Below, piece after piece: positions 1-39,913 of a DNA stretch of 64,000 nucleotides. Source of the stretch: Candidatus Shapirobacteria bacterium (GTDB lineage: Bacteria > Patescibacteriota > Microgenomatia > UBA12405). Position 1 is the stretch's first letter. Each line of letters starts with the position of its first letter. Position numbers and translations under genes: made by a program. The stretch covers positions 1,974 to 65,973 of the forward strand of contig JBAYIT010000005.1 in assembly GCA_041665485.1 (NCBI GenBank). The letters are read 5' to 3'. The notes beneath the pieces are model-generated. The model did no database searches. It had not been told where the DNA came from and worked only from the letters and a program-made list of their open reading frames with translations.

Positions 1-1939
1 AACCGAAACTGTCGGTGGTGCCACCAATTTGGCCACGGCGGGAAGAAAGATCACCAATAACTGTGCCTAAGAATTCCGAGGGAGTGGCCACCTCGAACTT
101 CATGATCGGCTCGAGAATCAAAGGCCTGGCTTGAGCAAAAGCATCTTTAATGGCGTAAGCGCCGGCTAATTTGAAGGCAGCTTCGGAAGAATCAACTTCG
201 TGATAAGTGCCATCATAGACAGTGACTTTAACGTCGGTGGCCGGATAACCGGCAATAATCCCCTTCTGGAGAGTTTCTCTAACCCCTTTCTCAATGGCAG
301 GAATAAAGTTGCTAGGAATAGCTCCACCTTTAACACCGTTGACAAATTCGACACCTTCACCCCTGTTCTTGGGCTCAATTCTGATTTTACAATGACCGTA
401 TTGACCGTGACCGCCGGATTGGTGGATATATTTTCCCTCACCTTCGGCATTGGCCGAAATAGTTTCCCGATAAGCGACTTGAGGAACACCGGTTTTGACA
501 TTAACACCAAATTCGCGCTTGAGACGATCGACAATGATTTCAAGGTAAAGCTCGCCCATACCGGCAATAATGGTTTGACCGGTTTCGTGGTTGTAAGTGA
601 CCTTAAAAGTTGGATCTTCAGTAGTAAGGCGGTTAAGGGCAACGCTCATTTTTTCCTGATCATCGGTAGTACCGGGCTCAATGCTTAGAGAGATAACCGG
701 GTCGGGGAACTGGATGGGAGAAAGAGAGATGGGGTTGGCTTTGTCGCAAAGAGTGTCGCCGGTGACGGATTCTTTAAGACCAATACAGGCGACAATTTCT
801 CCGGCATAACCTTCTTCAATCCCCTCGCGCTTGTCGGCGTGCATCAATAAAAGACGGCCGATACGTTCGGATTTCTGCTTGGTGGGGTTGTAGACCTCAA
901 CACCGGTTTTAACGGTGCCAGAATAGACACGGAGATAAGAGAGGGTGCCAACATGGGCGTCGGACTGGACTTTGAAAATAAGACCGGAAAAGGCATCGTC
1001 TTTTTCGGGACGGCGGGTGATTTTTTCGCCGGTAACAACGTCAAAACCTTCGGTGGGAGGAAGATCGATAGGAGAAGGAAGATAATCAACGATAGCGTCT
1101 AAAATCGGATGAATACCCTTGTTTCGCCAAGCGGCGCCACAGAAAACCGGAAAAAGTTTGCGGTGAATAGTGGCTTGCCTTAGAGCTGATTTCAACTCGG
1201 GAATAGAAATTTCCTGATCGTTTAGGAATTTTTCCATTAGGGCTTCGTCTTCCCCGGCAATTTTTTCCACCATTTGGGCACGGGCCTTGGTGGCAGAATC
1301 AAGATATTCCGGAGTGACATCTTTGACGGTAAACTCGAGACCTTCTTCGTCTTTGTCGTAAATAATCATCTTCATTTCCATTAGATCGATAACACCGGTA
1401 AAATCGTGCTCTTCACCGATGGGCAAGACCATAGGAATGATAGGACAGTGGAGTTTTTGGTTGATGGAATCGAGAGTTTTTTGGAAAGAAGCGCCAACTT
1501 TGTCCATTTTGTTGACAAAAGCCAGGCGGGGAACGCCGTATTTGTCGGCCTGACGCCAGACGGTTTCGGATTGGGCCTGAACACCGGCATTGCCATCGAA
1601 AATCATGATAGCGCCATCCAAGACACGCAAAGATCGCTCGACTTCGGCGGTGAAATCGACGTGGCCGGGGGTGTCGATGATATTGATACGAATGTCTTTC
1701 CAAAAGGTGGTAATACAGGCAGATTGAATGGTGATGCCCCGCTCGCGCTCCTGATCCATGGTGTCGGTGGTGGTGGTGCCCTCATCGACGGAGCCAATTT
1801 TGTGGATTTTACCGGTATAAAAGAGGATGCGCTCGGTGGTGGTGGTTTTACCGCCGTCGATATGGGCAATAATGCCGATATTACGGACTTTGTGCATAGG
1901 AACATCACGATTTTTGGAAAGTTTGATTTGATCAGCCAT
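1..1939 (-). CDS. fusA: elongation factor G (partial; C-terminus runs off the window start)
   Basis: Minus-strand frame open from ATG (rc of cat at 1937-1939) to position 1. N-terminus reads MADQIKLSKNRDVPMHKVRNIGIIAHIDGGKTTTTERIL (G1 P-loop), then RGITIQSA and IIDTPGHVDF. Absent from the ORF track because there is no in-window stop. Confidence 0.9.
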   Translation of the reverse strand, partial: MADQIKLSKNRDVPMHKVRNIGIIAHIDGGKTTTTERILFYTGKIHKIGSVDEGTTTTDTMDQERERGITIQSACITTFWKDIRINIIDTPGHVDFTAEVERSLRVLDGAIMIFDGNAGVQAQSETVWRQADKYGVPRLAFVNKMDKVGASFQKTLDSINQKLHCPIIPMVLPIGEEHDFTGVIDLMEMKMIIYDKDEEGLEFTVKDVTPEYLDSATKARAQMVEKIAGEDEALMEKFLNDQEISIPELKSALRQATIHRKLFPVFCGAAWRNKGIHPILDAIVDYLPSPIDLPPTEGFDVVTGEKITRRPEKDDAFSGLIFKVQSDAHVGTLSYLRVYSGTVKTGVEVYNPTKQKSERIGRLLLMHADKREGIEEGYAGEIVACIGLKESVTGDTLCDKANPISLSPIQFPDPVISLSIEPGTTDDQEKMSVALNRLTTEDPTFKVTYNHETGQTIIAGMGELYLEIIVDRLKREFGVNVKTGVPQVAYRETISANAEGEGKYIHQSGGHGQYGHCKIRIEPKNRGEGVEFVNGVKGGAIPSNFIPAIEKGVRETLQKGIIAGYPATDVKVTVYDGTYHEVDSSEAAFKLAGAYAIKDAFAQARPLILEPIMKFEVATPSEFLGTVIGDLSSRRGQIGGTTDSFG

Positions 1940-2002
1940 GGGAATCAGTTAACAGTTTTCAGTTACGAGTTGCGAGTTGAAAAACAGTTTAATTAAATAA
2001 TT

Positions 2003-2035
2003 TAAAAAATAAAAAAGATTGCAGGCATGGCCTGC
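2003..2035 (-). terminator. rho-independent terminator candidate after the Bro-N gene, about 65 nt upstream of the fusA start
   Basis: Perfect 6-bp GC stem gcaggc-atg-gcctgc (2021-2035). On the minus strand it is followed by UCUUUUUUAUUUUUU (rc of 2003-2020). Confidence 0.45.
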
Positions 2036-2065
2036 GAATGAAGTTATGATAACACAAGTACAGAA

Positions 2066-2107
2066 AATTTTTAATTTTAAATTTTTAATTTTTAAACAAT
2101 TTTTAAT
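2066..2107. repeat. 42-bp AT-rich dispersed repeat, copy 1 (second copy at 59768-59809, 41/42 identical)
   Basis: aatttttaattttaaatttttaatttttaaacaatttttaat matches 59768-59809 with one mismatch. Both copies sit on the upstream side of a minus-strand core gene (fusA, gatB) at the edge of an accessory insertion. Confidence 0.7.
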
Positions 2108-2398
2108 ATCTAATTTTTAAATACTAAAAAAACAAAACAGGGGTGGGGTGGAGAGGAGGAAAAGGGCTTGATATAATTCGACATGGGAAAATGTGTAATT
2201 AGTATGTCGATGCATGATTGGGGACGTAACATTCAAGAAAGAATAGATATAATTGATGAGGTTAGTGGTTGCAGTTACTTTTCTGCTTGTGGGACTAAGG
2301 GAAACCGTTGCTCGGCTACCAAAGAAGAACAGTGCCCGGCGACAAAATTTCCAGAACTGGCGCAAGAAGTTGAAGCGAGATGGAAAGGAGAAAAGAAT

Positions 2399-3238
2399 CT
2401 ACTTTAACTCTTTTTTCTTATCTTTTGCTTTTGGTAAATAGTTTTCTTTGGAAACGATTGGCCGACCTAATTCTTTTTCGGTTTGTTTTCTGGCATTTCC
2501 AGCAATGTTTCCGCCCCTGTTGGCGACTTTTTTATTTGCCACAAAAGTATCTGGCTTTTCTTGTTGAGAAATTTCTGTGGTCACCCGCTCACCAAGCATG
2601 TTAAAAATTAATTCCAAATCATTCATATGATCACGTAAATTTTGCCGTTTTAATCCCTTTAATCTTTTGTATTCACTGGGTGTTACGCCAAAAGTGGCTT
2701 TGGAAATTTCAGCGGTCAAAATCTCATATTCTTTTTGTTCTTTTATACCTCGTTTTTGCCACTCATCGGTTAATTCTTCGCGAATGGCAATGCCCCGCAT
2801 TCGTCTCTCTATCCAACTTTCGGGGTACCCCTTGAGTTTATAGAGCAGTCTTGTTCTTTTAGTTGCCAATTCCGGATCTTCAATTTCTTGGACTCGCTCA
2901 TAGCCAACTTTTGCTAGCCAGCGTTTGAATGGCTCGGCTTTGGGTGAGGGAATTGATTGAATAATACGAAAAATTCCTTCTGTATTAGCACAATCTGTTT
3001 CGCGCATTTTTCCATCTGGGGCGAGTACCTTCAACCGGTGACAATTTGTCACCACTTCACTTCCTTCGTCTCTTAATCTTTGAGAGAGTTTGTTCCAATA
3101 TTTTCGTGCTGTTTGATCGTCTTGTTGGCTTGTAAGCGCCTGGACGATATCTACCATTGAAAACCACCACTCGTTATTGTAAATAACTTTGCGTATTTCT
3201 TTTTTTTGAAATATGGCTATTTTTGTTGTGATTTCCAT
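2399..3238 (-). CDS. Bro-N domain protein (DinD / phage antirepressor-like)
   Basis: 279 aa. N-terminus has IYNNEWWFSMVDIVQALT, typical of Bro-N/DinD family proteins; C-terminal half is unrelated. Family assignment is from memory of the domain, not a search. Confidence 0.5.
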   Translation of the reverse strand: MEITTKIAIFQKKEIRKVIYNNEWWFSMVDIVQALTSQQDDQTARKYWNKLSQRLRDEGSEVVTNCHRLKVLAPDGKMRETDCANTEGIFRIIQSIPSPKAEPFKRWLAKVGYERVQEIEDPELATKRTRLLYKLKGYPESWIERRMRGIAIREELTDEWQKRGIKEQKEYEILTAEISKATFGVTPSEYKRLKGLKRQNLRDHMNDLELIFNMLGERVTTEISQQEKPDTFVANKKVANRGGNIAGNARKQTEKELGRPIVSKENYLPKAKDKKKELK

Positions 3239-3454
3239 GCTGGTTTAATTGTATTCCATTTCTTTATACGAAAACAGCCATGTTTGCCTCACACTGTGGC
3301 CTTGCGGGTGTTAGTGTCATGAGGGCTTCGAGCCCTTCAAACAGGTTATTTTAACAAAAGACGACTGTAATTTTTCAATCCCTCTAAATCTCCCTTTAAC
3401 CCGTCAGGTGCCGGGCACGGCAATGGGACTTTAATAAAGATGTTGGTATAAAAT

Positions 3455-4648
3455 ATGGAGATGAAGAAAAAAACGGTGGGGATAATTGGGGGAGGGATTG
3501 GGGGGTTGGTGGCGGGATTACGGCTTTGCCAAAAAGGCTATAAAGTAACGATTTTTGAAAAGGGGGAGGTGTTGGGGGGGCTTTTAGCCGGATTTAAGGT
3601 GGAAGGGACAAACTTGGAGCGGGCCTACCACCATATTTTTGAGAGTGACAAAGAGGTAATTGGTTTAATTAAAGAATTGGGATTGTCAGAAAAGATGGTT
3701 TGGAAAAAAGGAACAATCGGGGTGTATTGGCAAAAAGAGATGTGGCCATTTAATGGCCCAGTCGATTTGCTACGATTTGGGGCGATTCCCCTACTGGACC
3801 GGATTCGGATGGGATTAGTTGGCTTGTGGCTTCAAAAAGATGAAAACTACCAAAAATATATAAAAGTTACGGCGGTGAGTTGGATGAAAAAGTGGGTGGG
3901 AAAGGCGGGCTTTGAAGTGGTGTGGGAGCCACTACTAAGGGCCAAATTTGGGGAAGATTACGACAAAGTATCAATGGCCTGGCTCTGGGCCCGGATTCAT
4001 ACCAGAAGCTCTAAACTTGGCTATTTACTGGGCGGGTTTGAGCAAATTACTAATCGGCTGGCGGAAGAAATTAAAAAAGCGGGCGGAGTTATAAAACTAA
4101 AGACAGAAGTAGATTTGGAAAAAGTTAAAAAAGATTTTGATTTAGTGATTAATACGGGGCCGGTTCCGAGAGTAAAGTATTTGGGAGCGGTGATAGTGGC
4201 ATTTACGTCGAGCCAAAATTTAAGCCAGTATTATTGGCACAATATTAATGACCCTCAGTCCCCCTTCCTGGCTTTTATTCAACATACCAATCTTGTTGAT
4301 AAGAGTGAGTACGGCGGGAAACATGTTTATTATATGGGCGCTTACCTTTCTCACGATGACCACAGATTTGAAGCGGATGAAGAAACGATTAAGAAAGATT
4401 TTCACGAATACTTAAAGCGGATTTTCGCCGATTTTGACCCGGGGCAGATTGATCAGGAGTGGGTGTTTAGATTTAAAAATGCCCAGCATGTGGTGACGAC
4501 GGATTACCAAGAAATAATAAATAAGACAAAGAAGACCAATAGGACCGATAAAATAATTAATTTAAATTTTGCCATGATTTTTCCCCAGGACAGAGGAATT
4601 AATTATGCGGTGCGGGAGGCGGAAAGACTAATAAAATGTCGTTTTTAA
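3455..4648 (+). CDS. FAD/NAD(P)-binding oxidoreductase (amine-oxidase / UDP-galactopyranose-mutase-like fold)
   Basis: 397 aa. N-terminal Rossmann dinucleotide motif VGIIGGGIGGLVAG followed by an acidic residue (FEKGEVLGG); substrate unknown. Confidence 0.6.
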   Translation: MEMKKKTVGIIGGGIGGLVAGLRLCQKGYKVTIFEKGEVLGGLLAGFKVEGTNLERAYHHIFESDKEVIGLIKELGLSEKMVWKKGTIGVYWQKEMWPFNGPVDLLRFGAIPLLDRIRMGLVGLWLQKDENYQKYIKVTAVSWMKKWVGKAGFEVVWEPLLRAKFGEDYDKVSMAWLWARIHTRSSKLGYLLGGFEQITNRLAEEIKKAGGVIKLKTEVDLEKVKKDFDLVINTGPVPRVKYLGAVIVAFTSSQNLSQYYWHNINDPQSPFLAFIQHTNLVDKSEYGGKHVYYMGAYLSHDDHRFEADEETIKKDFHEYLKRIFADFDPGQIDQEWVFRFKNAQHVVTTDYQEIINKTKKTNRTDKIINLNFAMIFPQDRGINYAVREAERLIKCRF

Positions 4649-6024
4649 CAATAAAGTTTTTGCTATTTTTTTTGGCAGTTTGGGGGCTGGCAATAATTTT
4701 TCGGCCCTACAAGAGAGCTTATAAATTATTGATAATTGGGGCGAATTTAGTTTTCTACAGTTTTTTTGGAGTAACAGGACTGGTGGTTTTAGTAAGTGAT
4801 GTTTTACTAAATTACGGACTGCTAAAAATTTTGGGGAGACTAAAAGCGAAAAAAAAGGTTTTGGGGGTTGGAGTGGGTTTGAATTTACTGCTTTTGAGCA
4901 GTTATAAATATTTTAATAATCTGACGGGAATAACGGGGATGGAAATAATTGCCCCGATTGGAGTGTCGTTTTTTACTTTTAAAATTATTAGCGTTCTGAT
5001 TGATAGCTACCGACAAAAGATTCAGGTTAACAGTTTGGCCGACTACTTGGCCTATGTTAGCTTTTTTCCCCAAATATCGGCCGGGCCGATTGCCAGGTTT
5101 AAAGAATTTGCCGAGGATATAAACCAAGAGGAGCAAGGAGAGACGGAAAACAACAATATTGGGCCAAGATTTTGGACCTTAATAATTAGTGGCTGGCTTA
5201 AAATGTATTTAATTGGGAGCTACTTGTATGAAATAGTTAATCAAACGATTAATGCACCTCAAAGCTTTGGCCGGGTGGACTTAATTTTGGGCATGATGAG
5301 CTTGAGTTTTTTTATTTTTGCTAATTTTAGTGGCTATTCGGACATTTCGGAGGCGCTGGCGATGGCGCTGGGATTTAGAACGCCAAAGAATTTTAATAAC
5401 CCTTATCGGGCAGTGGGGATTCGAGATTTTTGGCAAAGGTGGCACATGAGCCTATCGACCTGGCTTAAGGACTACCTTTATATACCAATGGGGGGAAACC
5501 GGCGGGGACGGGCATGGAAATATTGCAATTTACTGGTGACCATGGTGGTGGGCGGAATGTGGCACGGAGCGGAAATTAACTTTTTGGTGTGGGGAGGGCT
5601 ACAGGGAGAAATGCTAATGATTGATCATTTTTTGCATGATACGGTGTGGCCAAAATTGAGAGGGGTGGCTAACTGGATAAAAATAGCGGGGAGAGGCGGG
5701 GGGTGGCTGATAACCTTTGGACTGATAAATATTAGTTGGATTATCTTTTATCCAAAAAACATGGAGGCGTCGGTGACCTATTTTGAATACTTGATTAGAC
5801 CAAGAGAGAACCTGGTGGTGCTGGGCTCGGGTGGGCTTCTGACAATCCTAATTTTGGCGGGGATTTTGAGCGTGAGAGGAGATAAATTTGAGGAAATAAT
5901 GGCCAAAACGTTAACTAAAGCCCCGGGAGTGGTAAGATATGTAGTACTAGTAGTGATATTTTATTTGATTATTACCTTCGGACCAAGTAACTATGTGGCT
6001 CCAGCCGCCTACTTTAATTTCTAA
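4636..6024 (+). CDS. MBOAT-family membrane O-acyltransferase (AlgI/DltB-like)
   Basis: 462 aa, multi-pass membrane protein. Has the MBOAT signature RWHMSLSTWLKDYLYIPMGGNRRG with the catalytic His. Confidence 0.85.
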   Translation: MSFLTIKFLLFFLAVWGLAIIFRPYKRAYKLLIIGANLVFYSFFGVTGLVVLVSDVLLNYGLLKILGRLKAKKKVLGVGVGLNLLLLSSYKYFNNLTGITGMEIIAPIGVSFFTFKIISVLIDSYRQKIQVNSLADYLAYVSFFPQISAGPIARFKEFAEDINQEEQGETENNNIGPRFWTLIISGWLKMYLIGSYLYEIVNQTINAPQSFGRVDLILGMMSLSFFIFANFSGYSDISEALAMALGFRTPKNFNNPYRAVGIRDFWQRWHMSLSTWLKDYLYIPMGGNRRGRAWKYCNLLVTMVVGGMWHGAEINFLVWGGLQGEMLMIDHFLHDTVWPKLRGVANWIKIAGRGGGWLITFGLINISWIIFYPKNMEASVTYFEYLIRPRENLVVLGSGGLLTILILAGILSVRGDKFEEIMAKTLTKAPGVVRYVVLVVIFYLIITFGPSNYVAPAAYFNF

Positions 6025-6889
6025 ACGCCGAAAAGAATCGACAAGATTGTGGTTGTGGGCAGTAATAATACTGACTTCGGTGACTGGCTTGTTTAAAATT
6101 AGGACGCAGGCAAAATCGGCAGAAATGGTTAGCCCGCTGGCACTGGCTCAACTACCGACAACGATACCAACAATTATGCCGACAACGATACCGGCAATAA
6201 CACCAACGATAATACCAACGATAGCACCAATAATAGAAATAAAAGAAATCCAACCAGCCAATATATTAATTATTGGTGACTCGATGGTAATGGAAGGCTT
6301 TGGCCCGGTAGTGGCAAACGATCTGTTGGCTTATTCGGACTTCAAAGTAGTGAGAAAGGGGAAATTTTCAACCGGACTAAACAGGACGGATTTTTTTGAT
6401 TGGTATAAATACTCACTAGAGCTGATTGAGGAATATAAGCCAGAGGCAATGGTGATAATGTTTGGCGCCAACGACAACCAAAATATTTTGGACGGAGGGG
6501 GCAGGGCTTACACGGTAGGCGAGGCGGGCTGGGACGAGGTGTATACCCAAAGAGTGGCCCAATATATGGCCTTAATTAGCCCAATGGTAGAAAAAGTTTA
6601 TTGGGTGGGACAACCGCCGGCCAGAGAAGCGGGGTTTTCCGGAAGATTGAAGCACCTAAACGATATCTATGAGGCCGAAGCGAAAAACTGGAGCAATATT
6701 AAATTTATTTCGACGTGGGAGAGGTTTACTGTTGAGGGGAAATATCAGGCCTCGGTGGCAAACGATCAGGGACTAAAACAGAGGGTAAAAACAGATGACG
6801 GAATTCATTTGACCATTCATGGGGCAAAAATTATGAGTGAAATGGTGATTGGAGTAATCAGGCAAGACCTTAATCTGGCGACGAGGTAA
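5993..6889 (+). CDS. SGNH/GDSL-type hydrolase (AlgJ/DltD-like partner of the MBOAT protein); true start probably internal (about 6124, MVSPLALAQ)
   Basis: Signal/TM segment, PT-rich linker, then IIGDSMVMEGFG (GDS block) and MFGANDNQ (block III), DGIHLT near the C-terminus. The annotated start overlaps the MBOAT gene. Confidence 0.7.
   Translation: MWLQPPTLISKRRKESTRLWLWAVIILTSVTGLFKIRTQAKSAEMVSPLALAQLPTTIPTIMPTTIPAITPTIIPTIAPIIEIKEIQPANILIIGDSMVMEGFGPVVANDLLAYSDFKVVRKGKFSTGLNRTDFFDWYKYSLELIEEYKPEAMVIMFGANDNQNILDGGGRAYTVGEAGWDEVYTQRVAQYMALISPMVEKVYWVGQPPAREAGFSGRLKHLNDIYEAEAKNWSNIKFISTWERFTVEGKYQASVANDQGLKQRVKTDDGIHLTIHGAKIMSEMVIGVIRQDLNLATR
6148..6232 (+). repeat. imperfect tandem repeats (about 24 bp units) encoding a P/T/I-rich linker in the SGNH hydrolase
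   Basis: ccgacaacgataccaacaattatg / ccgacaacgataccggcaataaca / ccaacgataataccaacgatagca encode PTTIPTIMPTTIPAITPTIIPTIAP. Confidence 0.6.
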
Positions 6890-8836: not shown

Positions 8837-9604
8837 CTAATGTTGAAGTTTTCGATACTCCTCAAACAAGTATTTTATTTCGGGTAGAGCGTAATTCATT
8901 CTTTTTTCCAGTTCCATTGGATCACTCTCCTTTTCGATTTTATACTGTTGAGGATCTTTATCAAAAACAAACGGATCTTCCCAAGATAACCAATCGACCT
9001 CTTTTGTTGATGTTCTATCTCTAAAATAGAAAGCAAGTTGTGAAAGCACCACTAAATCGTGAGCATTGAGGCTGGGAATGGCATCGCCTAATTGTTTGGC
9101 AGTAAGGGCTAAATGACACCAGGTAAAATCTAATGTTTTACCGAACAAAATTCTTCCAGCCTCTGTGACCATTGATTCAACCATGTGGTAATTTTTTGGG
9201 TGAGTTGCCCAGGCTTTTGGAGATCTAAGAAAAAGAGTTGGGGTGTTTTTTGGGCCAATACTATTAATGTCCTGAAAAAAGGCTTGCTTATAGTTTAACA
9301 AGGTGAAGATTGTTCTGTCTGAATAACAAAGATGCAATATTTGATCAGGCTCAGATTGCTTTACGGCGTTTTTGTATCCAGCAACGAGATGATCCCCAAC
9401 AAATGAGTCGTCTGAATTCGTATTGACCAAAAAGAAATCATCATGCTGGAAAAAATTAATTGATTCCGGATTAGAAATTACTGTTTTTGGCGTAACACTG
9501 ACGAAAGCCTTATCAAAGTTCTGCTTCAAAATAGGTAGTATTTGTTTCAGTAACTTTGTTTCGATATTGTTGGGATCGTGAAACGGGAAAACTAACGATG
9601 ACAT
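8837..9604 (-). CDS. hypothetical protein
   Basis: 255 aa ORF in the accessory island; no motif I can assign. Confidence 0.4.
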   Translation of the reverse strand: MSSLVFPFHDPNNIETKLLKQILPILKQNFDKAFVSVTPKTVISNPESINFFQHDDFFLVNTNSDDSFVGDHLVAGYKNAVKQSEPDQILHLCYSDRTIFTLLNYKQAFFQDINSIGPKNTPTLFLRSPKAWATHPKNYHMVESMVTEAGRILFGKTLDFTWCHLALTAKQLGDAIPSLNAHDLVVLSQLAFYFRDRTSTKEVDWLSWEDPFVFDKDPQQYKIEKESDPMELEKRMNYALPEIKYLFEEYRKLQH

Positions 9605-10155: not shown

Positions 10156-10487
10156 AGAAGAGGCCCTCTATATTTACCATCCACATCAAAGTCTTGGCTT
10201 GGAGGAATAGGTTTGTTGCCCTGACAATTTCGTCTTCGACAAAACGGATTGTCATTACCGACAGGACCCAGGCTACCCGCTTTGAATCGAACATAGAAAG
10301 ATGATAGTAAGTCATTCCGATTCATAAGTTTAGACTCAGCGCGATCTACAATTACGGCACAATGATTACATTGAGATCCATCTTCGGGTGGATCAATGAC
10401 AATTACACCAGTGAAGCCATTTCCAATTACCTCCCTGCCAAGTATTTTCATATAACCTATAATAACACGAAGTAGGAGGTTTGTCAA
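10152..10487 (-). CDS. hypothetical protein (Cys-containing, 111 aa)
   Basis: ORF only; the CNHC ... CRRRNC pattern is the only feature. Confidence 0.25.
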   Translation of the reverse strand: MTNLLLRVIIGYMKILGREVIGNGFTGVIVIDPPEDGSQCNHCAVIVDRAESKLMNRNDLLSSFYVRFKAGSLGPVGNDNPFCRRRNCQGNKPIPPSQDFDVDGKYRGPLL

Positions 10488-32552: not shown

Positions 32553-33998
32553 TTAATAAGACAAGCCAAAAAGCCAGCGATGGGTGGAGGGGGCGCCACA
32601 GCGGACACATTTACCTGATTCTTCGACTGAATCAAGGGGTAGGCAACGAGTGGTGGCTTTGGTATCTTTTTTAATTTCGGCTTCGCAGTCAGCGTTTTCA
32701 CACCAATTGGCGCGGATAAAGCCACGGGTGGTATCCATAATTTTCTTAAAATCATCGTAATTATCGACAGTGAAAGTGTGATCTTGGGTAAACTTTTTGT
32801 GGGTTTCAAATAAGTTAATCTGGATTTGATTTAATAAATCAGAAACCGTTTGGTGAAGATTATCCAAAGAAACGGTAATTTTTTCACCAGTGTCGCGACG
32901 GCAAACAACCACTGAATTACTAGCTACATCGCGATCGCCGATTTCCAGGCGAAGTGGCACGCCTTTCATTTCCCATTGATTAAATTTAAAACCGGCGGTT
33001 TCGCCATCACGGATATCAATTTCCACCCGGAAATCTTTGATCTTTTCAAGAGTTTCTTTGGCAAAATCTTGGGCTTTAGTGTGCCCCGGAATAGGAATGA
33101 TGATGATTTGGATGGGGGCAATATTGGGAGGTAGTTTTAAACCTTTGGCATCGCCGTGGGCCATAATCAGGCCACCGATTGATCTGGTAGAAAATCCCCA
33201 GGAGTTTTGATAAGGCATAATTTTTTCACCATTTTGGCCCTGAACTGTCCAGTCAAAAGACTTGGAAAAATTTTGGGCTAGATCATGGGAGGTGCAAGAT
33301 TGAAGAGATTTACCATTGGGCATTAGGGTTTCAAAGGTGAAAGTGTCGCCGGCGCCGGGGAATTTTTCTGATTGAGATTTTTTACCCTTAATACCATAAA
33401 TACCGAGTAATTCATTATAAGTTGTTTGATACATATCAAGAGCCCAGTGAACCATGTCTAAATTCTCGGTGGCAGTAGCATGGGCGCAATGGCCTTCTTG
33501 CCATAAGAATTCGGAAGTGCGTAAAAATAAATAAGTTCTTTTTTCCCAGCGAACAACATTACACCATTGATTAATTAAAACCGGCAGGTCGCGCCAAGAG
33601 GATGTCCACTTTTGATACATGTCGTACATGATGGTTTCGGAGGTGGGACGAACAGCCAGACTTTCGGCCAATTTTTCGCCACCGCCGTGGGTGACAACAG
33701 CCAATTGAGGAGCAAAACCTTCAACGTGCTCTTTTTCTTTTTGCAAATAATGCATGGGGATAAAGAGAGGGAAATAGGCGTTTTTAACTCCCCTCTCTTT
33801 AATTTTTTTGTCCATAAAGGCTTGAATGCCTTCCCAAAGGGAATAGCCGTAGGGGCGAATAACCATACAGCCTTTAACCGGGGCATAATCGGCCAATTCG
33901 GCCTTAAGAACAATGTCGTTAAACCATCCGGCAAGATCAGTATTAAAGTCTTTTAGTTTGTCAGCCATATCTTTATTGTAGACGATTAACTTACCCAA
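32553..33998 (-). CDS. proS: proline--tRNA ligase, archaeal/eukaryotic type
   Basis: 481 aa class II core with a C-terminal zinc-binding region (CENADCEAE ... CVRCG) ending in Tyr. Confidence 0.88.
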   Translation of the reverse strand: MGKLIVYNKDMADKLKDFNTDLAGWFNDIVLKAELADYAPVKGCMVIRPYGYSLWEGIQAFMDKKIKERGVKNAYFPLFIPMHYLQKEKEHVEGFAPQLAVVTHGGGEKLAESLAVRPTSETIMYDMYQKWTSSWRDLPVLINQWCNVVRWEKRTYLFLRTSEFLWQEGHCAHATATENLDMVHWALDMYQTTYNELLGIYGIKGKKSQSEKFPGAGDTFTFETLMPNGKSLQSCTSHDLAQNFSKSFDWTVQGQNGEKIMPYQNSWGFSTRSIGGLIMAHGDAKGLKLPPNIAPIQIIIIPIPGHTKAQDFAKETLEKIKDFRVEIDIRDGETAGFKFNQWEMKGVPLRLEIGDRDVASNSVVVCRRDTGEKITVSLDNLHQTVSDLLNQIQINLFETHKKFTQDHTFTVDNYDDFKKIMDTTRGFIRANWCENADCEAEIKKDTKATTRCLPLDSVEESGKCVRCGAPSTHRWLFGLSY

Positions 33999-34161
33999 GG
34001 ACGATTTGATTTCGTGGTACCACCTTAGTTACTTCTCTTGGCTTTACACAGGTTGCATCTGGACCAGCTTGTCGCTGTCATCTCCACGGCGGGAAACCGC
34101 TTCATTGATTTGAAGTAATAATATCAGAGTTTTAAAATAAAAACACCTGATATAATTTGAT

Positions 34162-34506
34162 ATGGCAGAAAGTTTTAAGTGGGAAAAATTTAATATTACA
34201 ATGGCAACTAAAGACGAACTAAGTGGTCTAAAATGGTGGACACGTAGGGGACGTGTGCCAAAAGATGGTGGTTCAGACAACTTAACTGGTGGAACTGCAG
34301 AAGTGGCAACAATTATTCGACAACGTGGTCAGGTGGCAAGGATATCTGGAACAGGAGAAGGGGCAAATACCTATCTTGCAGCGCAGGTGGTTTTGGCCCG
34401 ACTTAAGCACCATGAATGGACTGGGGTAAGTTACAGGATGGGTTCTGTCGATGAGGAAGGAGGTATCAAACGGAGAGTTGCTTACTTAAGGCTAAATTTG
34501 GATTGA
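34162..34506 (+). CDS. hypothetical protein in the compositionally distinct islet; preceded by an extended -10 (TGATATAAT) 6 nt before the ATG
   Basis: 114 aa ORF; tgatataat at 34147-34155 then ATG at 34162. Confidence 0.35.
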   Translation: MAESFKWEKFNITMATKDELSGLKWWTRRGRVPKDGGSDNLTGGTAEVATIIRQRGQVARISGTGEGANTYLAAQVVLARLKHHEWTGVSYRMGSVDEEGGIKRRVAYLRLNLD

Positions 34507-34508
34507 AT

Positions 34509-35826
34509 TTACTCAACTGCTCCATTGGCATAAACCACAGCTTTTGGGCCAACTAGGTTACCTCTGATTAGACACATAATGGTTTCTGAAACAGTTTCCC
34601 AACTCGGTATTATTCGACCATCTGGTTCAGTAGTAAACAGTGACGTTAAAAAAACGAGAACACGCTTAACATCTGGGTGTTGATCTAACGTCGCAAAGTG
34701 CGTATTTTCCCTATCAGTTAATGCTTGGGTCAAATCACCAATCGCACTTTCTAGATTCCTAATCGCCGCTAATCTTAATCTGCGCACATGTTTCCGTCCA
34801 GGTTGAAAGTCTTGTTGTCTGTCCGGTAGTTTGAGAACAGATTCAAAATCATTTCTTGCTGGTACAACTAAACGACTGCCTATACAATCTGAAATATGGT
34901 CGTGATTTACGAGGAACATATTTGCTAAAACCAGAAGGTCTGTAAGATCAAAGTCCCCAAATTTGATATTATCAAACCTAACGGAAGGATGGTCTATTTT
35001 TTTTAATACCTTCTGTTACGTTCCAAGTAGAAGCTCGTTGGCCGGGGACTTTTGTAAAGCAAAAAAAATGAGGATTTGCGCTTAGCGTTGCACTAATGAT
35101 TCTGTCGTTCATTTGATAAGGTTTACCGTCCAGCGCTTTAATTGAGAATCCTCTTGATAACTCAAGTATCTGACGTGCTGTTGAGTTAGGATGTGCTTCT
35201 AAGATCGCCAGAATAGCCCCAGGACACCCTAATATTCTTAACCCTCTTTCTTCATCAAGATAGGTTACTGGTGGTTTTCGTTTGCCTTTTGTACCGGTTT
35301 GTTCGCTGATAACAGGTTTAACTCCTTCAGTTTTTTCAATGGCTAATTCCGAGGGTGAAGAGTCTCTGATGGCAATAACGTCTTCTCTGTGCTGTCTGGT
35401 GGAGGTAAGAAGATCTTCAGATACAGCTCCAGCTTTGAACCCTAGCTCTAGGGTGGGTATTAAACCTTCAATACCTGCGAGATAATCTGGAATAGCTGGT
35501 TGGGCTACTTCTCGCCAAACTCTTTGTGATGAATCCATGTCGCATAATTCCGACTGTAGTGCTTCGATATAACCTGCGACACATTTCACTTGTTCGGTTT
35601 CTGCAACCCTTGAGATTACTTTATCAGCTAGCGCTGACACATCCAATAGACCGTCTGGAGTCAATGTCACCTGACCTGAGGCGAGAGGTTCAGTTTCTTG
35701 AACACTTTGTCTAAGTAATACTTGCTCTGATTTAAGTCTTGCTTCGATAGCTGAAATCGCTTGCTTACCAAAAAGGGCTTTTGATAGTGCCGACCTAGCC
35801 TCTGAAAGATTCTGTTCTGCTGACAT
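34509..35826 (-). pseudogene. about 435-aa gene of unknown function split by a frameshift in a T8 (A8 on the coding strand) homopolymer at 35003-35010
   Basis: ORFs 34978..35826 and 34509..34919 join into one continuous frame if the A8 run is read as A7 (...GIKKIDHPSVRFDNIKFGDFDLTDLLVLANMFLVNHDH...). Codon usage is unlike the flanking core genes. Confidence 0.5.
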
Positions 35827-35881
35827 ATACTCGTATTATATAGGACACTTTAGACATATTCAATACTCAAATCTAGGTTAA

Positions 35882-37624
35882 TTAAACCTCAATCAACAAA
35901 GGCAAGACCATGGGCTCACGGCCGGTTTTGGACATAATGATTTGTTCAATGTGGGCCTGAAGTTGCTCGCGAAGGTATTCGAGATTGGCCGGTTTACTGG
36001 TTGACTCGCTAAATTTCTTAATAATTTCAAGTTTTAGAAATTCCAAAAGATCGGCGTTTTCTTTAACAAAAACAAAGCCACGACTTAAGATGACGGGGTC
36101 TTTTTGCAAAGTACCGTCAACAGTGTTGACTAAAAGAATGACAGTAAACATACCGTCTTCGGCCAGAAGTTTGCGGTCGCGCAAAACGGTGGTGCCTACA
36201 TCCCCAACTCCAAGTCCATCGATGAGGACCTTGCGGAGAGAAACATGATTGTCAATATTAAATTTGCCTTGAGAATTGAAAGTGACAATTGAATCGTAAT
36301 CAGGATTAACAAACTGGTCCTCGGTATAGCCAAGTAACTTGGCCATATTTTGATAACTCTTGATATGGCGGAAGTTTCCGCCAATGGGCAAGAGATATTT
36401 GGGGCGGAGAAGGTTTATCAAGAGAGCATGCTCTTTTTGATAACCGTGGCCGGAAACATGAAGTTCTTCTTTTTCACCATAAACAACCAGAGCGCCCATT
36501 TTGGAAAGGTTATCAATCATGCTGTAGATACTGCTAGTAGTGCCGGGGATATAGTCGGGGGAAGAAAAGATAACTTTGTCACCCGGTTTGATTTTAATTC
36601 GGTGCTTGCCCATGACCATTTTAGAAAGAGCGGAGTCTGGCTGGCCGGCAAATCCGGCGGCCAAAATAAGCAATTTATTGTCGGGGAAATTTTTAATCCT
36701 CTCAATTTCGACAATGTCGGTGTCAGAAAGACTAAGATAGCCCAGTTCTTTACCAACCTTAATGGCACGTTCCACCGAGAAGCCAACAATGACAACCTTA
36801 CGGCCAACAGATTTAGCATATTCGATAGCCTGACTCCAACGAACAATATTACTACTAATGGAGGTGACGAACACCCGGCCTTTGGCAGAAATTATTTCCT
36901 GGCGAAAATGGTCGGCAATTGAAGACTCGGAGGGAGAAAAGCCCTCATGGTCGGAACCCAAGGAATCGGATAAAAGGCAAAGAACACCTTTGTCGCCAAC
37001 TTGAGAAATTTTGTGATACTCAGTTGGTTTGCCATCGAGAGGAAAGAGGTCAAATTTGAAATCAGAACCGTGATAAACAACACCGACTGGAGTAGAAACA
37101 GCCAGATGAAAAGTGTCGGGAATAGAATGATTAACCCGAATAGGAGTTAGAGAAAAAGGGCCAGAAACCAGAGAGGATTTTTCGTCGTAAACATTAATTT
37201 TGGCCCGAATATCGGTTTCAGAAAGCCTGGCTTCAATAAAGGCGGCAGCCAGACGAGGGGCAAAAATCGGCACGTTTTTGCCAATAATGGGGAGAATAAA
37301 GCGGACAGCGCCAATATGGTCTTCGTGGCCGTGGGTAATATAAATACCCAAAATCCGGTCTTTTTTATCTTCAAGATAATGGGTATCGGGAATTTGAAGG
37401 TCGACACCAAAGGCGTCTTCTTCAGGAAAGCCAACACCGCAGTCGACAATAATAATCTGACTGCGTTTGGGGTCGCCTTGAGGCAAATATTCATAAACGA
37501 ACATGTTTTGGGTGACGTCGCCGAAACCACCAAGTGAGATAATTTTAAGTTGATCGCCAGTGGAATTAGTAAATTGTGTCCGCTCAAACTGCGGACGTGA
37601 ATAGTTTTGATTACGTTGAATCAT
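35882..37624 (-). CDS. rnj: ribonuclease J (metallo-beta-lactamase / beta-CASP)
   Basis: HxHxDH motif ITHGHEDHIGAV; 580 aa. Confidence 0.9.
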   Translation of the reverse strand: MIQRNQNYSRPQFERTQFTNSTGDQLKIISLGGFGDVTQNMFVYEYLPQGDPKRSQIIIVDCGVGFPEEDAFGVDLQIPDTHYLEDKKDRILGIYITHGHEDHIGAVRFILPIIGKNVPIFAPRLAAAFIEARLSETDIRAKINVYDEKSSLVSGPFSLTPIRVNHSIPDTFHLAVSTPVGVVYHGSDFKFDLFPLDGKPTEYHKISQVGDKGVLCLLSDSLGSDHEGFSPSESSIADHFRQEIISAKGRVFVTSISSNIVRWSQAIEYAKSVGRKVVIVGFSVERAIKVGKELGYLSLSDTDIVEIERIKNFPDNKLLILAAGFAGQPDSALSKMVMGKHRIKIKPGDKVIFSSPDYIPGTTSSIYSMIDNLSKMGALVVYGEKEELHVSGHGYQKEHALLINLLRPKYLLPIGGNFRHIKSYQNMAKLLGYTEDQFVNPDYDSIVTFNSQGKFNIDNHVSLRKVLIDGLGVGDVGTTVLRDRKLLAEDGMFTVILLVNTVDGTLQKDPVILSRGFVFVKENADLLEFLKLEIIKKFSESTSKPANLEYLREQLQAHIEQIIMSKTGREPMVLPLLIEV

Positions 37625-37754
37625 AGTTAATTAATGCTTGAATCTTTTCCAATAATAATAAAGTCTATTGCGAATGTAGGATAAAACCTGTTGCGAAGGA
37701 CTCGAATCGATTTCAAAGCTTCCGAGAATTCTAACAGGGTTGTTACAAAATAGC

Positions 37755-37812
37755 AATGGCATATGTTATAATGAATTCAATCACGCCCCTCGAGCAATCG
37801 GGGGGATTATTT
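37755..37812 (+). repeat. hairpin/T-run element copy 1: TGTTATAAT - aatcacgcc - hairpin - attattttt
   Basis: atgttataatgaattcaatcacgcccctcgagcaatcggggggattattttt; the plus strand looks like an extended -10 followed by a terminator-like hairpin. Confidence 0.5.
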
Positions 37813-38343
37813 TTGGCATTGTAAAAAAGTAAATCTGGTTTTAAATAATCCTCGTTTGATATTCCAAATTTCTCTACCCAAGTGCCCGTGTTCATAAACA
37901 ACCAATACTTGCTTTTTCTTTTCTATTAAATATCGATAGATTGGCTCAAAGTCGCCATCACCAGTAAAAAAGACAAAAGTTTGATAATTTTCTTCGATAG
38001 ATCGATAAACACTCATACATATTTCAATATCGAAATCACATTTCCGAATTTTAATTAATTTACCCCTAATATTGGCAATGGTGATGTATTTAACCGGCTT
38101 AGTGGTTAGGTTATAGCCAATTTTTTTTATTTGAGTTAAAAAATTTTTTGACTGAGGATTACTATCAGAACCATAATAAAAGTTAATTGATTCGATTTGA
38201 GAATAGGTTTTTAGATATTTATAAAGTTTATTTGGGTCGACTGGTTTTACCAACTCATCCCGCCAGCCATAAACATTGGCGTAGTCAATAAAAACCGCCG
38301 TTTTGCCTTTTAAAAGTAGTTTCTGTGGGCTGGTGTCAGACAT
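37807..38343 (-). CDS. NYN-domain (LabA-like, PIN-like) ribonuclease
   Basis: AVFIDYANV ... FVFFTGDGDFEPI NYN signature. Confidence 0.7.
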   Translation of the reverse strand: MSDTSPQKLLLKGKTAVFIDYANVYGWRDELVKPVDPNKLYKYLKTYSQIESINFYYGSDSNPQSKNFLTQIKKIGYNLTTKPVKYITIANIRGKLIKIRKCDFDIEICMSVYRSIEENYQTFVFFTGDGDFEPIYRYLIEKKKQVLVVYEHGHLGREIWNIKRGLFKTRFTFLQCQK

Positions 38344-38344
38344 G

Positions 38345-38392
38345 TGTTATGCTATTTTAATCACGCCCTCCGATATTATGTCGGAGGGACAT
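38345..38392 (+). repeat. hairpin/T-run element copy 2: tgttatgct - aatcacgcc - ccctccgat/gtcggaggg hairpin - acatttttt
   Basis: Direct repeat of copy 1 sharing the aatcacgcc flank and the hairpin plus T-run; together the copies bracket the NYN gene. Confidence 0.5.
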
Positions 38393-38395
38393 TTT

Positions 38396-39328
38396 TTATG
38401 GGGTATAAACTTGCATTAACCAATTAACTTGGCCGGCTTGGTCAAAATCAATTTTAAATAAATTAGTGTTAAAACAAACGTCACTATCGTAGGAAATGGT
38501 TTTATTGAACTCAGCAACATCTATTTTAGACAGTAGCGCTACGTCGTGGATATCAAGGCAATTAATTTCAGTTTCGAGTGGGAGCTTAAAAGTTCGCGTT
38601 AATTGGTTGCCACCATTTTCTATTCTGTAACCGTTTGGGGCCGAATCATCGTCTATCCACTCGACGTAGTCAATGTCAAAATATGGTTGGTTATTTTTTT
38701 GGTAAACCTTTTTGATGTTGCCAACTTTTACGGTTTTAGAGTTTAGGTGAAAAACATCTTTAGTCGAAGTGGTGGAAGTTGGGGTGGGTAAAAATTTAAA
38801 AGTGGAGAGGATTTGATCGCGGGTATTGTTATCGAAATTCAAAAACACAAACTGAACATAATGTTTATTATCAGGAGTTTTCTTTATGTAGTAATCTCCT
38901 TCGACAACATAACTTGGGCCAGTAAAATTAGTAAAAGTGTTGCTTCCCTTAATGGCAATTGGTAGCAATTTGCAACCCATACCGACTTCACATGAATCAA
39001 CTTCTTTTTTGACAATTTTTAATTCTGAATCATTTGAGATTAAAACATCGATTGTTACCTGTGGGCCAACGGAGTTTTCCGCATATGGGTAATCTATTTT
39101 TTTGAGTGTACGATTATCATCCGGATTTATTTGGTACTCGTTTTTTGGATATTGAAATTCAAAGCTGTATTTTTCATTAACATACGTTTGCCAGGTTGTT
39201 TCCGGAATAGGAGTTGGTGAAGTTGTTGATGGAACTGTCCTAGGGGTTAGTTGGTATTTGTTACTAATGGCGGCTAAAAGTAAAACTATGAAAATCGACG
39301 GAATGAAGAAATAAATAAATTTTGGCAT
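38396..39328 (-). CDS. secreted protein, paralogous-domain family (WQTYxNxKYSFEFQYP ... DQILSTFKFLP)
   Basis: 310 aa. Signal/TM MPKFIYFFIPSIFIVLLLAAISNKYQLTP nearly identical to the downstream paralog; T/P-rich linker. Confidence 0.6.
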   Translation of the reverse strand: MPKFIYFFIPSIFIVLLLAAISNKYQLTPRTVPSTTSPTPIPETTWQTYVNEKYSFEFQYPKNEYQINPDDNRTLKKIDYPYAENSVGPQVTIDVLISNDSELKIVKKEVDSCEVGMGCKLLPIAIKGSNTFTNFTGPSYVVEGDYYIKKTPDNKHYVQFVFLNFDNNTRDQILSTFKFLPTPTSTTSTKDVFHLNSKTVKVGNIKKVYQKNNQPYFDIDYVEWIDDDSAPNGYRIENGGNQLTRTFKLPLETEINCLDIHDVALLSKIDVAEFNKTISYDSDVCFNTNLFKIDFDQAGQVNWLMQVYTP

Positions 39329-39334
39329 TAATGA

Positions 39335-39913
39335 TTAATAAATAAAACTAAAAGTGGAGAGAATTTGATTAAATAAGGTACTCCATTTATTTTCGTACGC
39401 TTTACTGTAGATTGTTTGTATAGAAATACAGTATGTATCAGTGGAAATATTAATACTTCGGATTTTATCGGCTGGTTCATTGCTTAAGTATTCAATAACT
39501 GCTGGGTATTGGTTATTTAACTTAACTTGTTTGGTTAAAATCCCAACTGTTCCACGGGGTAGTTCTGAACATCTGTTGTTGTCGACAGTTATTAATAGCT
39601 TGATACCGGAAACTGTGTCGTATCCAAAGTTCTCATTGATAAATTTTTCTTCATAATCATTGGATTTAATTTCGATTCTTGATCCATTATCTAATCGCGA
39701 TGTTACTGGTTGAGAAAAGTTGTCTGGATATCTGATTTCGAAACTATATTGCTGGTTTTCGTAAGTTTTCCAAGATGTGATTGGAGTCGAAGTTGGGGTT
39801 GGTAAAACAGGGATTGGGGTGGTTTTGGGGATAAGTTGGTATTTACTACTAATCGAGGCAAGGAGGAGGACGATAAAAATGGCGGGGATGAAGAGGAAAA
39901 TAAACTTTGGCAT
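39335..39913 (-). CDS. secreted protein, tandem paralog (WKTYENQQYSFEIRYP ... FNQILSTFSFIY)
   Basis: 192 aa. N-terminus MPKFIFLFIPAIFIVLLLASISSKYQLIP. Confidence 0.6.
   Translation of the reverse strand: MPKFIFLFIPAIFIVLLLASISSKYQLIPKTTPIPVLPTPTSTPITSWKTYENQQYSFEIRYPDNFSQPVTSRLDNGSRIEIKSNDYEEKFINENFGYDTVSGIKLLITVDNNRCSELPRGTVGILTKQVKLNNQYPAVIEYLSNEPADKIRSINISTDTYCISIQTIYSKAYENKWSTLFNQILSTFSFIY

Follow-up and report, generated by a model that had tools for sequence, protein, structure and literature searches.

A lineage-specific orphan insertion with a probable homopolymer frameshift between proS and rnj in a Candidatus Shapirobacteria genome

A 64-kb stretch of contig JBAYIT010000005.1 from a Candidatus Shapirobacteria genome (candidate phyla radiation, CPR, or Patescibacteria), hereafter the window, was analysed at the interval between two core genes of the minus strand, rnj on the right flank (35882-37624) and proS on the left (32553-33968/33998), the latter encoding an archaeal-type prolyl-tRNA synthetase (ProRS). 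Read along the minus strand, the order is rnj, a lineage-specific insertion of 1,375 bp (35881-34507), an open reading frame (ORF) of 114 aa lying antisense (34162-34506, plus strand), a pair of divergent promoters, a T-box(Pro) leader (33994-34114, minus strand), proS and ftsK. The insertion holds two minus-strand ORFs that had been predicted and are both present, one of 282 aa (34978-35826) and one of 136 aa (34509-34919, its ATG at 34919), referred to jointly as the split gene. Near the end of the 282-aa ORF, 9 codons before its stop, lies a run of eight A residues in the mRNA sense (A8, or T8 on the plus strand; 34997-35004), and removal of a single base from this run joins the two ORFs.

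The original prediction had described 34044-35880 as a single foreign islet with a possibly phase-variable main gene. The interval is instead a native regulatory and small-ORF region beside a single foreign insertion, and this insertion, although genuine, is of an ordinary type, an orphan gene specific to the lineage with a probable homopolymer frameshift. For annotation purposes, the two "hypothetical proteins" of the insertion are best treated as one frameshifted gene, while the left part of the claimed islet consists of the T-box leader and a conserved small ORF. A further ORF of 78 aa at 34044-34280 overlaps the T-box leader and was rejected as a gene.

The boundaries of the insertion come from the closest relative, a related species (loci L063/L064) whose proS, rnj and ftsK products are 89-93% identical to those of the window at a synonymous divergence (dS) of about 1.4. 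The gene order in this relative is ftsK, proS, the 114-aa ORF and rnj with nothing else in between, and in L063 the 114-aa ORF and rnj share 15 nt at their tails. The DNA alignment between the window and L063 ends at 34442 and restarts exactly at 35882. Because the alignment breaks there and the segment is missing in L063, the foreign DNA was set at 34507-35881 (1,375 bp). The tetranucleotide chi-square of this segment (z=4.3) was the highest in the window and was equalled by 0 of 396 windows of the same length, while 34044-34506 (z=1.4) fell inside the background. The foreign composition claimed for the whole interval thus applies to two-thirds of it and does not extend to the left part. The G+C content of the interval was ordinary (0.41-0.43). 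Codon usage, said to be clearly different, was moderately atypical only, with a Karlin-type bias of z ~1.2 that 0.12 of length-matched core-gene segments also reached (p ~0.1) and a third-position G+C content of 0.29 against 0.39 in core genes; it is the oligonucleotide usage that deviates.

Comparison with L063 (positions 10300-10350) located the right junction at 35874-35890, where TAGGTTAA[TTAA]ACCTCAAT is a leftover of the sequence in which the tails of rnj and the 114-aa ORF ancestrally overlapped, together with a 4-nt duplication of TTAA. At the left junction a diverged copy of the overlap, AGGCTAAATTTGGATTGA (34489-34506), now forms the end of the 114-aa ORF. As the overlap sequence was duplicated on insertion, both resident genes kept intact ends. 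It can be said fairly firmly from these sequences that the DNA was probably inserted where the converging 114-aa ORF and rnj overlapped. Apart from the short, diverged target duplication there was no trace of mobility. A search for terminal repeats or att sites around the insertion gave short matches at chance level only, and a second copy of the insert was found neither in the window nor in 61 related loci.

The same interval was compared among 23 Shapirobacteria relatives, and the stretch downstream of rnj was considered in loci L004-L025, L045, L048 and L060. The synteny of rnj, proS and ftsK was kept, and the rnj-proS or rnj-ftsK interval was variable in length and content. The rnj-proS interval ranged from 380 to 2,230 bp with a different content in each of the relatives, including IS200-like Y1 transposases (L006 and L009), RelB/RelE-like pairs (L019, L023 and probably L025) and an adenylate cyclase with a SIMPL protein (L021). 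Nothing resembling the 282-aa or 136-aa proteins was present in these intervals. The rnj-proS interval is, fairly firmly, a hot spot for accessory DNA in Shapirobacteria. The locus shares with orphan genes of integration hot spots between core genes the syntenic flanks (rnj, proS and ftsK), a content that differs from relative to relative, a deviant oligonucleotide usage, an own promoter and an absence of homologues. It differs from them in having no integrase, tRNA or att-type repeat, and in that the site is a 15-nt convergent gene overlap that has been duplicated. ProRS itself also occurs at this locus in three size classes, namely an archaeal-type of ~470 aa, a bacterial-type of ~570 aa and a short bacterial-type of ~405-417 aa.

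The occurrence of IS200-like transposases in the interval of relatives raises the question of a small insertion sequence (IS)-like element of 1.4 kb, with an orfA carrying a helix-turn-helix (HTH), a catalytic orfB, a frameshift at an A-run and a target duplication. The length of 1,375 bp is typical for an IS, the layout of two ORFs with an A-run and an HTH-like stretch near the end of the first ORF would fit, and the target sequence is duplicated at the junctions, TTAA included. An IS-like element was nevertheless judged very improbable, as neither terminal inverted repeats nor a transposase or recombinase domain were found, the insert is in single copy in the window and has none in the 61 related loci, and no homologue exists among 1.84 billion representative proteins, which is very unlike an IS family.

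The split gene itself was analysed by three-frame translation. The T8 run had been predicted at 35003-35010; the run exists, and it lies six bases further left at 34997-35004. When it is cut to seven bases the 282-aa and 136-aa ORFs fuse into a frame of 438 aa, in keeping with the predicted length of about 435 aa, while the addition of one base leads to an immediate stop and a product of 277 aa. The upstream frame closes at 34978, the downstream frame opens from 35015, and both are open across 38 nt. The A8 run falls inside this overlap and ends 16 nt before the TAG of the 282-aa ORF, and the chance of a run of at least eight bases falling in the 38-nt overlap is ~0.01, which makes a single ancestral gene likely. 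The downstream frame is also open for 32 codons upstream of the ATG of the 136-aa ORF, exactly far enough to pass the A8 run. A three-periodic Markov score rated the 25 junction codons best in the downstream frame, and for each ORF its own frame scored best of the six, albeit at the bottom of the core-gene range (-0.11 bits/codon for the 282-aa ORF as compared to -0.12 to +0.43 for core genes). From these sequence features, a common origin of the 282-aa and 136-aa ORFs in one gene is very probable.

A reading in which two genes were independent from the start would make the 282-aa and 136-aa ORFs a cassette, such as a toxin-antitoxin-like or regulator-effector pair, with a coincidental homopolymer. 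NCBI and the gene callers list two genes here and mark neither as a pseudogene, an ATG is available to the 136-aa ORF in a genome that needs no Shine-Dalgarno sequences, and accessory pairs occupy the same interval in relatives. In the NCBI annotation the downstream ORF has a later start and a length of 92 aa (MFA6519135.1), as against the 136 aa of other gene callers, and the frameshift is flagged in no annotation. We consider two original genes unlikely, since the extension of the downstream frame to just past the run, the low chance of such a run in the overlap and the coding score of the junction codons, only 25 in number, all speak for a single frame, and no toxin or antitoxin match was obtained in PADLOC or Pfam. 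The split gene is preceded by a sigma-70-type promoter of its own (35835-35863, minus strand), identified in a promoter scan as TTGAAT-17-TATAAT with 10 of 12 matches. Its -10 box ends 8 nt before the ATG, and the mRNA is therefore predicted to be leaderless or nearly so.

The length of the run was followed in public assemblies through the exact 282-aa product, the C-terminus of which depends on eight bases. This product was found in contigs of European Nucleotide Archive (ENA) ERZ27249449 and of Logan SRR6484324 and SRR18595301. The five contigs that were read showed 99.995-100% DNA identity to the window, each running unbroken through the site, and the NCBI and Joint Genome Institute (JGI) copies encode the same proteins. 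The run length has thereby been sampled in at least three separately sequenced samples. The products expected from seven bases (438 aa) and nine bases (277 aa) were absent from ~15 billion proteins, and the 90%-identity cluster had a single member. Run-length variants were also sought in JGI metagenome contigs, where a variable-gap pattern search gave no copy of the locus, as did a scan by alignment of the 114-aa protein. Every assembly of the organism thus has a run of eight bases, and the agreement between different assemblers and sequencing runs makes an artefact of assembly unlikely.

These data bear directly on the original prediction of a phase-variable contingency locus, in which replication slippage among seven, eight and nine bases would maintain a mixed ON/OFF population. 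Several features would fit this idea. The coding region, itself of foreign origin, contains a homopolymer, a long ORF is restored by the change of one base, and two eight-base runs fall within 72 nt, the second of them at 35061-35068 (A8 on the plus strand and T8 in the mRNA sense, codons HFFCF, within the 282-aa ORF). Phase variation was nonetheless considered quite improbable. Eight bases were present in all assemblies, neither alternative product was seen, and A/T runs of at least eight bases are ordinary here, with 14 in 64 kb against ~31 expected under a first-order Markov model, so the tract is unremarkable in itself. The tracts of known contingency loci usually exceed the background run length of their genome. 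Pfam, PADLOC, PHROGs and NCBIfam gave no match to a restriction-modification, defence or surface class. The locus has in common with the contingency loci of Haemophilus, Neisseria, Campylobacter and Helicobacter an in-gene homopolymer, a probable horizontal origin and a one-base ON/OFF potential, and differs from them in the lack of length polymorphism, a tract within the genomic background and the lack of a recognised surface or restriction-modification function. A contingency locus in a CPR bacterium would have been noteworthy as phase variation is hardly explored in these episymbionts.

The most likely state of the locus, in which we place somewhat better than even confidence, is a recently fixed frameshift in an inserted orphan gene, either a young pseudogene or a split gene. 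In the history that we propose, an orphan gene of ~438 aa would have been inserted into the rnj-proS hot spot, within the overlap of the two convergent genes, after which an A7 run would have gained one A (or, equivalently, an A10 run lost two) and the change would have become fixed. The cell might now produce mainly the 282-aa truncated product. As translation in this genome starts without Shine-Dalgarno sequences, it is conceivable that the 136-aa C-terminal part is made from an ATG of its own. A small percentage of full-length protein could perhaps arise if RNA polymerase drops one A on the run. Homopolymer frameshifts in Buchnera and Blochmannia are found in young pseudogenes and in genes that are partly rescued by polymerase infidelity. 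The present case resembles these in the one-base change in an A/T homopolymer, the small AT-leaning genome, the otherwise intact gene and the fixation of the change. It differs in that intact orthologues prove the frameshift there, while here the ancestral frame is deduced only from the two-frame overlap.

Several points weigh against the fixed frameshift and its proposed origin. Both ORFs are fully intact but for the one frameshift, which would fit a functional arrangement with two products equally well, and as there are no homologues there is neither an intact full-length relative to prove the fusion nor a dN/dS estimate. The run length was read from consensus assemblies only, which are compatible with minority run-length variants. 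The insertion has no marks of mobility, in that no integrase, transposase or recombinase, no terminal inverted repeats and no tRNA were found, and its polarity rests on one close relative, the alternative being a deletion in that relative between short repeats (AGGYTAAA). The DNA-binding assignment of the product, described below, is without statistical support.

An alternative is programmed recoding, in which A8 would act as a site of transcriptional slippage or of a +1 ribosomal shift and yield the 282-aa and 438-aa products in a set ratio, as happens in tssM1 of Citrobacter rodentium and in IS elements with orfA/orfB. Between the A-run and the zero-frame stop there are 16 nt, the +1 frame is open across the run from 35015, the remainder of both ORFs is intact, and the run is stably eight in all assemblies, as expected of a selected recoding site. 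If the run is such a site, transcriptional frameshifting on a short tract would gain an example from the CPR. Set against this, bacterial RNA polymerases slip appreciably mainly on runs of nine or more, restoration of the frame needs the loss of one A (or the gain of two), A8 runs are common in this genome, and there are no homologues in libraries of 5.8 billion and 1.84 billion proteins to show conservation of the site. Eight bases are also short relative to the documented bacterial case, which uses A11 (PMC4256274). Programmed recoding therefore seems to us improbable.

That documented case, tssM1 of Citrobacter rodentium, is the closest analogue for a rescue of the full-length product, as an A11 run 28 nt before the stop leads to ~20% full-length protein (PMC4256274). 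Transcriptional realignment also gives a +1 shift in IS elements, and related cases of poly-A frameshifting include Shigella spa13 and Thermus dnaX (reviewed in PMC5009743). The split gene is like tssM1 in that an A-run is followed soon by a premature stop (16 nt here and 28 nt in tssM1), that the C-terminal part is encoded in a +1 frame which stays open through the run, and that a short and a long product are possible. It is unlike tssM1 in having A8 rather than A11, in being known from sequence alone, and in being an orphan in a foreign insertion that belongs to no known machine.

The function of the orphan protein was addressed with several libraries. The fused protein and the 114-aa protein gave nothing in Pfam, PADLOC, PHROGs or NCBIfam, and three sub-domains gave no match to Pfam at E up to 10. 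The split-gene protein had no match among PDB sequences, no homologue in IMG/VR viral contigs and none in a tblastn search against phage and plasmid records. Among 5.8 billion clustered proteins the 282-aa protein returned self matches only, and an exhaustive HMMER search of 1.84 billion representatives returned only itself and a fragment of the 136-aa ORF. The earlier remark that none of the three products belongs to a recognised family was accordingly borne out, as no profile library recognises any of them.

AlphaFold2 without an alignment gave models that were too poor to interpret, with a predicted local distance difference test (pLDDT) score of 35 for the 438-aa fusion and of 38.7 for a 132-aa central piece. 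A probable winged helix had been predicted around STARQILELSRG, and this sequence is present in the product. The winged helix was left unconfirmed, as residues 183-277 had no Pfam match at E up to 10 and AlphaFold2 placed a helix-helix-strands arrangement there at a pLDDT of 35-39. As a guess from these models and the sequence, the 282-aa ORF may be helical in its N-terminal half, followed by a linker rich in Lys, Glu and Thr and, at about aa 200-270, an HTH-like stretch. The latter would consist of two helices at the STARQILELS stretch followed by strands, in the manner of a winged HTH, and the C-terminal part would be mixed. The split-gene protein is weakly predicted to be a DNA-binding factor with an HTH-like centre, and the gene may stem from a mobile or defence-type element of which the other parts are gone. 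A more specific version of this idea, to which we assign a low probability, would see in the insertion an undescribed selfish or defence element of CPR bacteria, as a remnant or whole, whose orphan gene gives a 282-aa DNA-binding form and, by slippage, a 438-aa fusion. If this were true, A8 would be a selected recoding site, which would explain the intact ORFs and the invariant run length.

The native part of the interval yielded observations that may be of wider interest than the split gene, among them a T-box(Pro) leader common to Shapirobacteria with two types of ProRS, a genome nearly free of Shine-Dalgarno sequences and a small ORF with unusually conserved synonymous sites. The leader (33994-34114, minus strand) lies directly upstream of proS and matched Rfam RF00230 with an E of 5e-6, its 36.6 bits falling short of the gathering score (93). 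Screens of the window gave no tRNA, no tmRNA and no Rfam family that passed its gathering threshold. The leader carries the T-box motif AAGGUGGUACCACG and an ultrashort Stem I, the hairpin loop of which contains CCC (Pro) followed by a purine, the loop having the consensus U(U/G)UCCC(G/A) and sitting over a K-turn-like base. Six further Shapirobacteria loci (L005, L018, L020, L021, L022 and L063) have the same leader in front of proS, and the window copy is 95-98% identical to that of L063. A consensus fold of six leader sequences, including that of the window, comprised 24 pairs, six of them with compensatory changes. The leader ends in a U-tract terminator in L005, L018 and L021, with none obvious in the window, L063, L020 and L022. 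In L005 the leader stands before a bacterial-type ProRS. The presence of the leader before both archaeal-type and bacterial-type proS suggests that the synthetase gene was swapped in situ behind it. On these sequence comparisons the leader is taken to be native DNA outside the insertion.

T-box leaders with an ultrashort Stem I are known from actinobacterial ileS. The proS leader shares with these the conserved T-box sequence, the antiterminator helix and a Stem I made up of a K-turn-like base and a codon-loop hairpin, and differs in its score below the Rfam gathering threshold, its CPR host, the archaeal-type ProRS and the lack of an obvious terminator. A full-text literature search gave no paper linking T-box riboswitches with CPR or Patescibacteria.

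The exchange of ProRS types at the locus raises the possibility that the insertion is a decayed relic of a bacterial-type proS displaced by the archaeal-type gene. The segment has the same position and orientation as bacterial-type proS in the rnj-ftsK interval of other Shapirobacteria, and residues 18-72 of the 282-aa protein resemble the N-terminus of ProRS (LFGK...LAxGxxTLxPxGL) with a BLASTP per-subject E of 0.008. A hidden Markov model (HMM) of 13 bacterial-type ProRS gave the fused protein -2.8 bits, rank 235 of 2,001 when compared with shuffled sequences, and no tRNA-synthetase Pfam matched. A relic would be expected downstream of the conserved T-box leader, whereas the segment sits upstream of the promoter of the leader, and the segment is missing in the closest relative, which has the same archaeal-type proS. 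With the test against shuffles failed and the position implausible, the relic was effectively refuted and its probability is close to negligible.

Between the leader and the 114-aa ORF is an inverted repeat with two outward-facing extended -10 boxes (34117-34157). The minus-strand box, TGATATTAT, belongs to the T-box/proS transcript and the plus-strand box, TGATATAAT (34148-34156), to the 114-aa ORF. This second box lies 5 nt before the ATG at 34162, and the sequence over 34071-34165 has one mismatch to L063. The ORF, which had been called divergent, is divergent from proS and convergent with the split gene. Its sole relative among 5.8 billion clusters is a protein of the closest relative (P0004, L063/L064), 74% identical and encoded at the same place between proS and rnj. 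The foreign origin proposed for the 114-aa ORF and for 34044-34161 does not hold, since the T-box leader, the divergent promoters and the syntenic ORF of the relative mark this DNA as native.

Over the 7.4 kb alignable with L063, conservation is highest in the tract from the leader to the 114-aa ORF, where identity per 150 nt is 90-95% compared to a mean of 79%. The first ~80 codons of the ORF (34162-34408) have ~90-93% DNA identity to L063, and the neighbouring core genes ~81-82%. For the ORF dS was 0.30 as compared to 1.4-1.5 in the flanking genes, making its synonymous sites about five-fold more conserved than those of its neighbours. Substitutions were spread as 21/19/21 over the three codon positions with a dN/dS of 0.56, and the ORF is the only frame open in both genomes. 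It is possible that a recent recombination tract or a constraint at the nucleotide level is the source of this anomaly. A non-coding RNA under the ORF was considered and rejected, as Rfam gave nothing, the folding z was -0.55 on the plus strand and -1.73 on the minus strand, and no other open frame is shared. Five more distant relatives have small ORFs that match the 114-aa ORF in position and orientation, and an HMM built from these gave 14.4 bits for P0004 and 7.8 bits for the window protein, with none of 2,000 shuffles above 7.1 bits. These scores weakly suggest that the 114-aa ORF belongs to a fast-evolving positional family in Shapirobacteria.

The extended -10 box close to the ATG of the 114-aa ORF had been read as a leaderless-type promoter. 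Start sites were surveyed for the 46 window ORFs of 150 aa or more. A Shine-Dalgarno-like motif was found in only 2 of the 46, and several core genes have a TATAAT-like box ~5-10 nt from the ATG, for example those ending at 9604, 27830, 41094 and 46285. From these sequences, leaderless or Shine-Dalgarno-independent initiation looks like the rule in this organism. The leaderless appearance of the 114-aa ORF is therefore the genome norm and not a foreign mark, although the box itself is present.

Two other regions of the window were of interest. Positions 37501-39900 have a G+C content of 0.34-0.35 and a tetranucleotide deviation among the highest of the window (z up to 3.6), align to L063 only in patches, and include an NYN-domain gene and orphan ORFs, one of them of 310 aa with an adjoining partial paralogue. 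The genes of the window are almost all on the minus strand other than at 200-6889 on the plus strand, where the long ORFs 3455-4648, 4636-6024 and 5993-6889 showed the strongest codon-usage deviation and the GC skew was also high. This region may be another atypical or acquired block.

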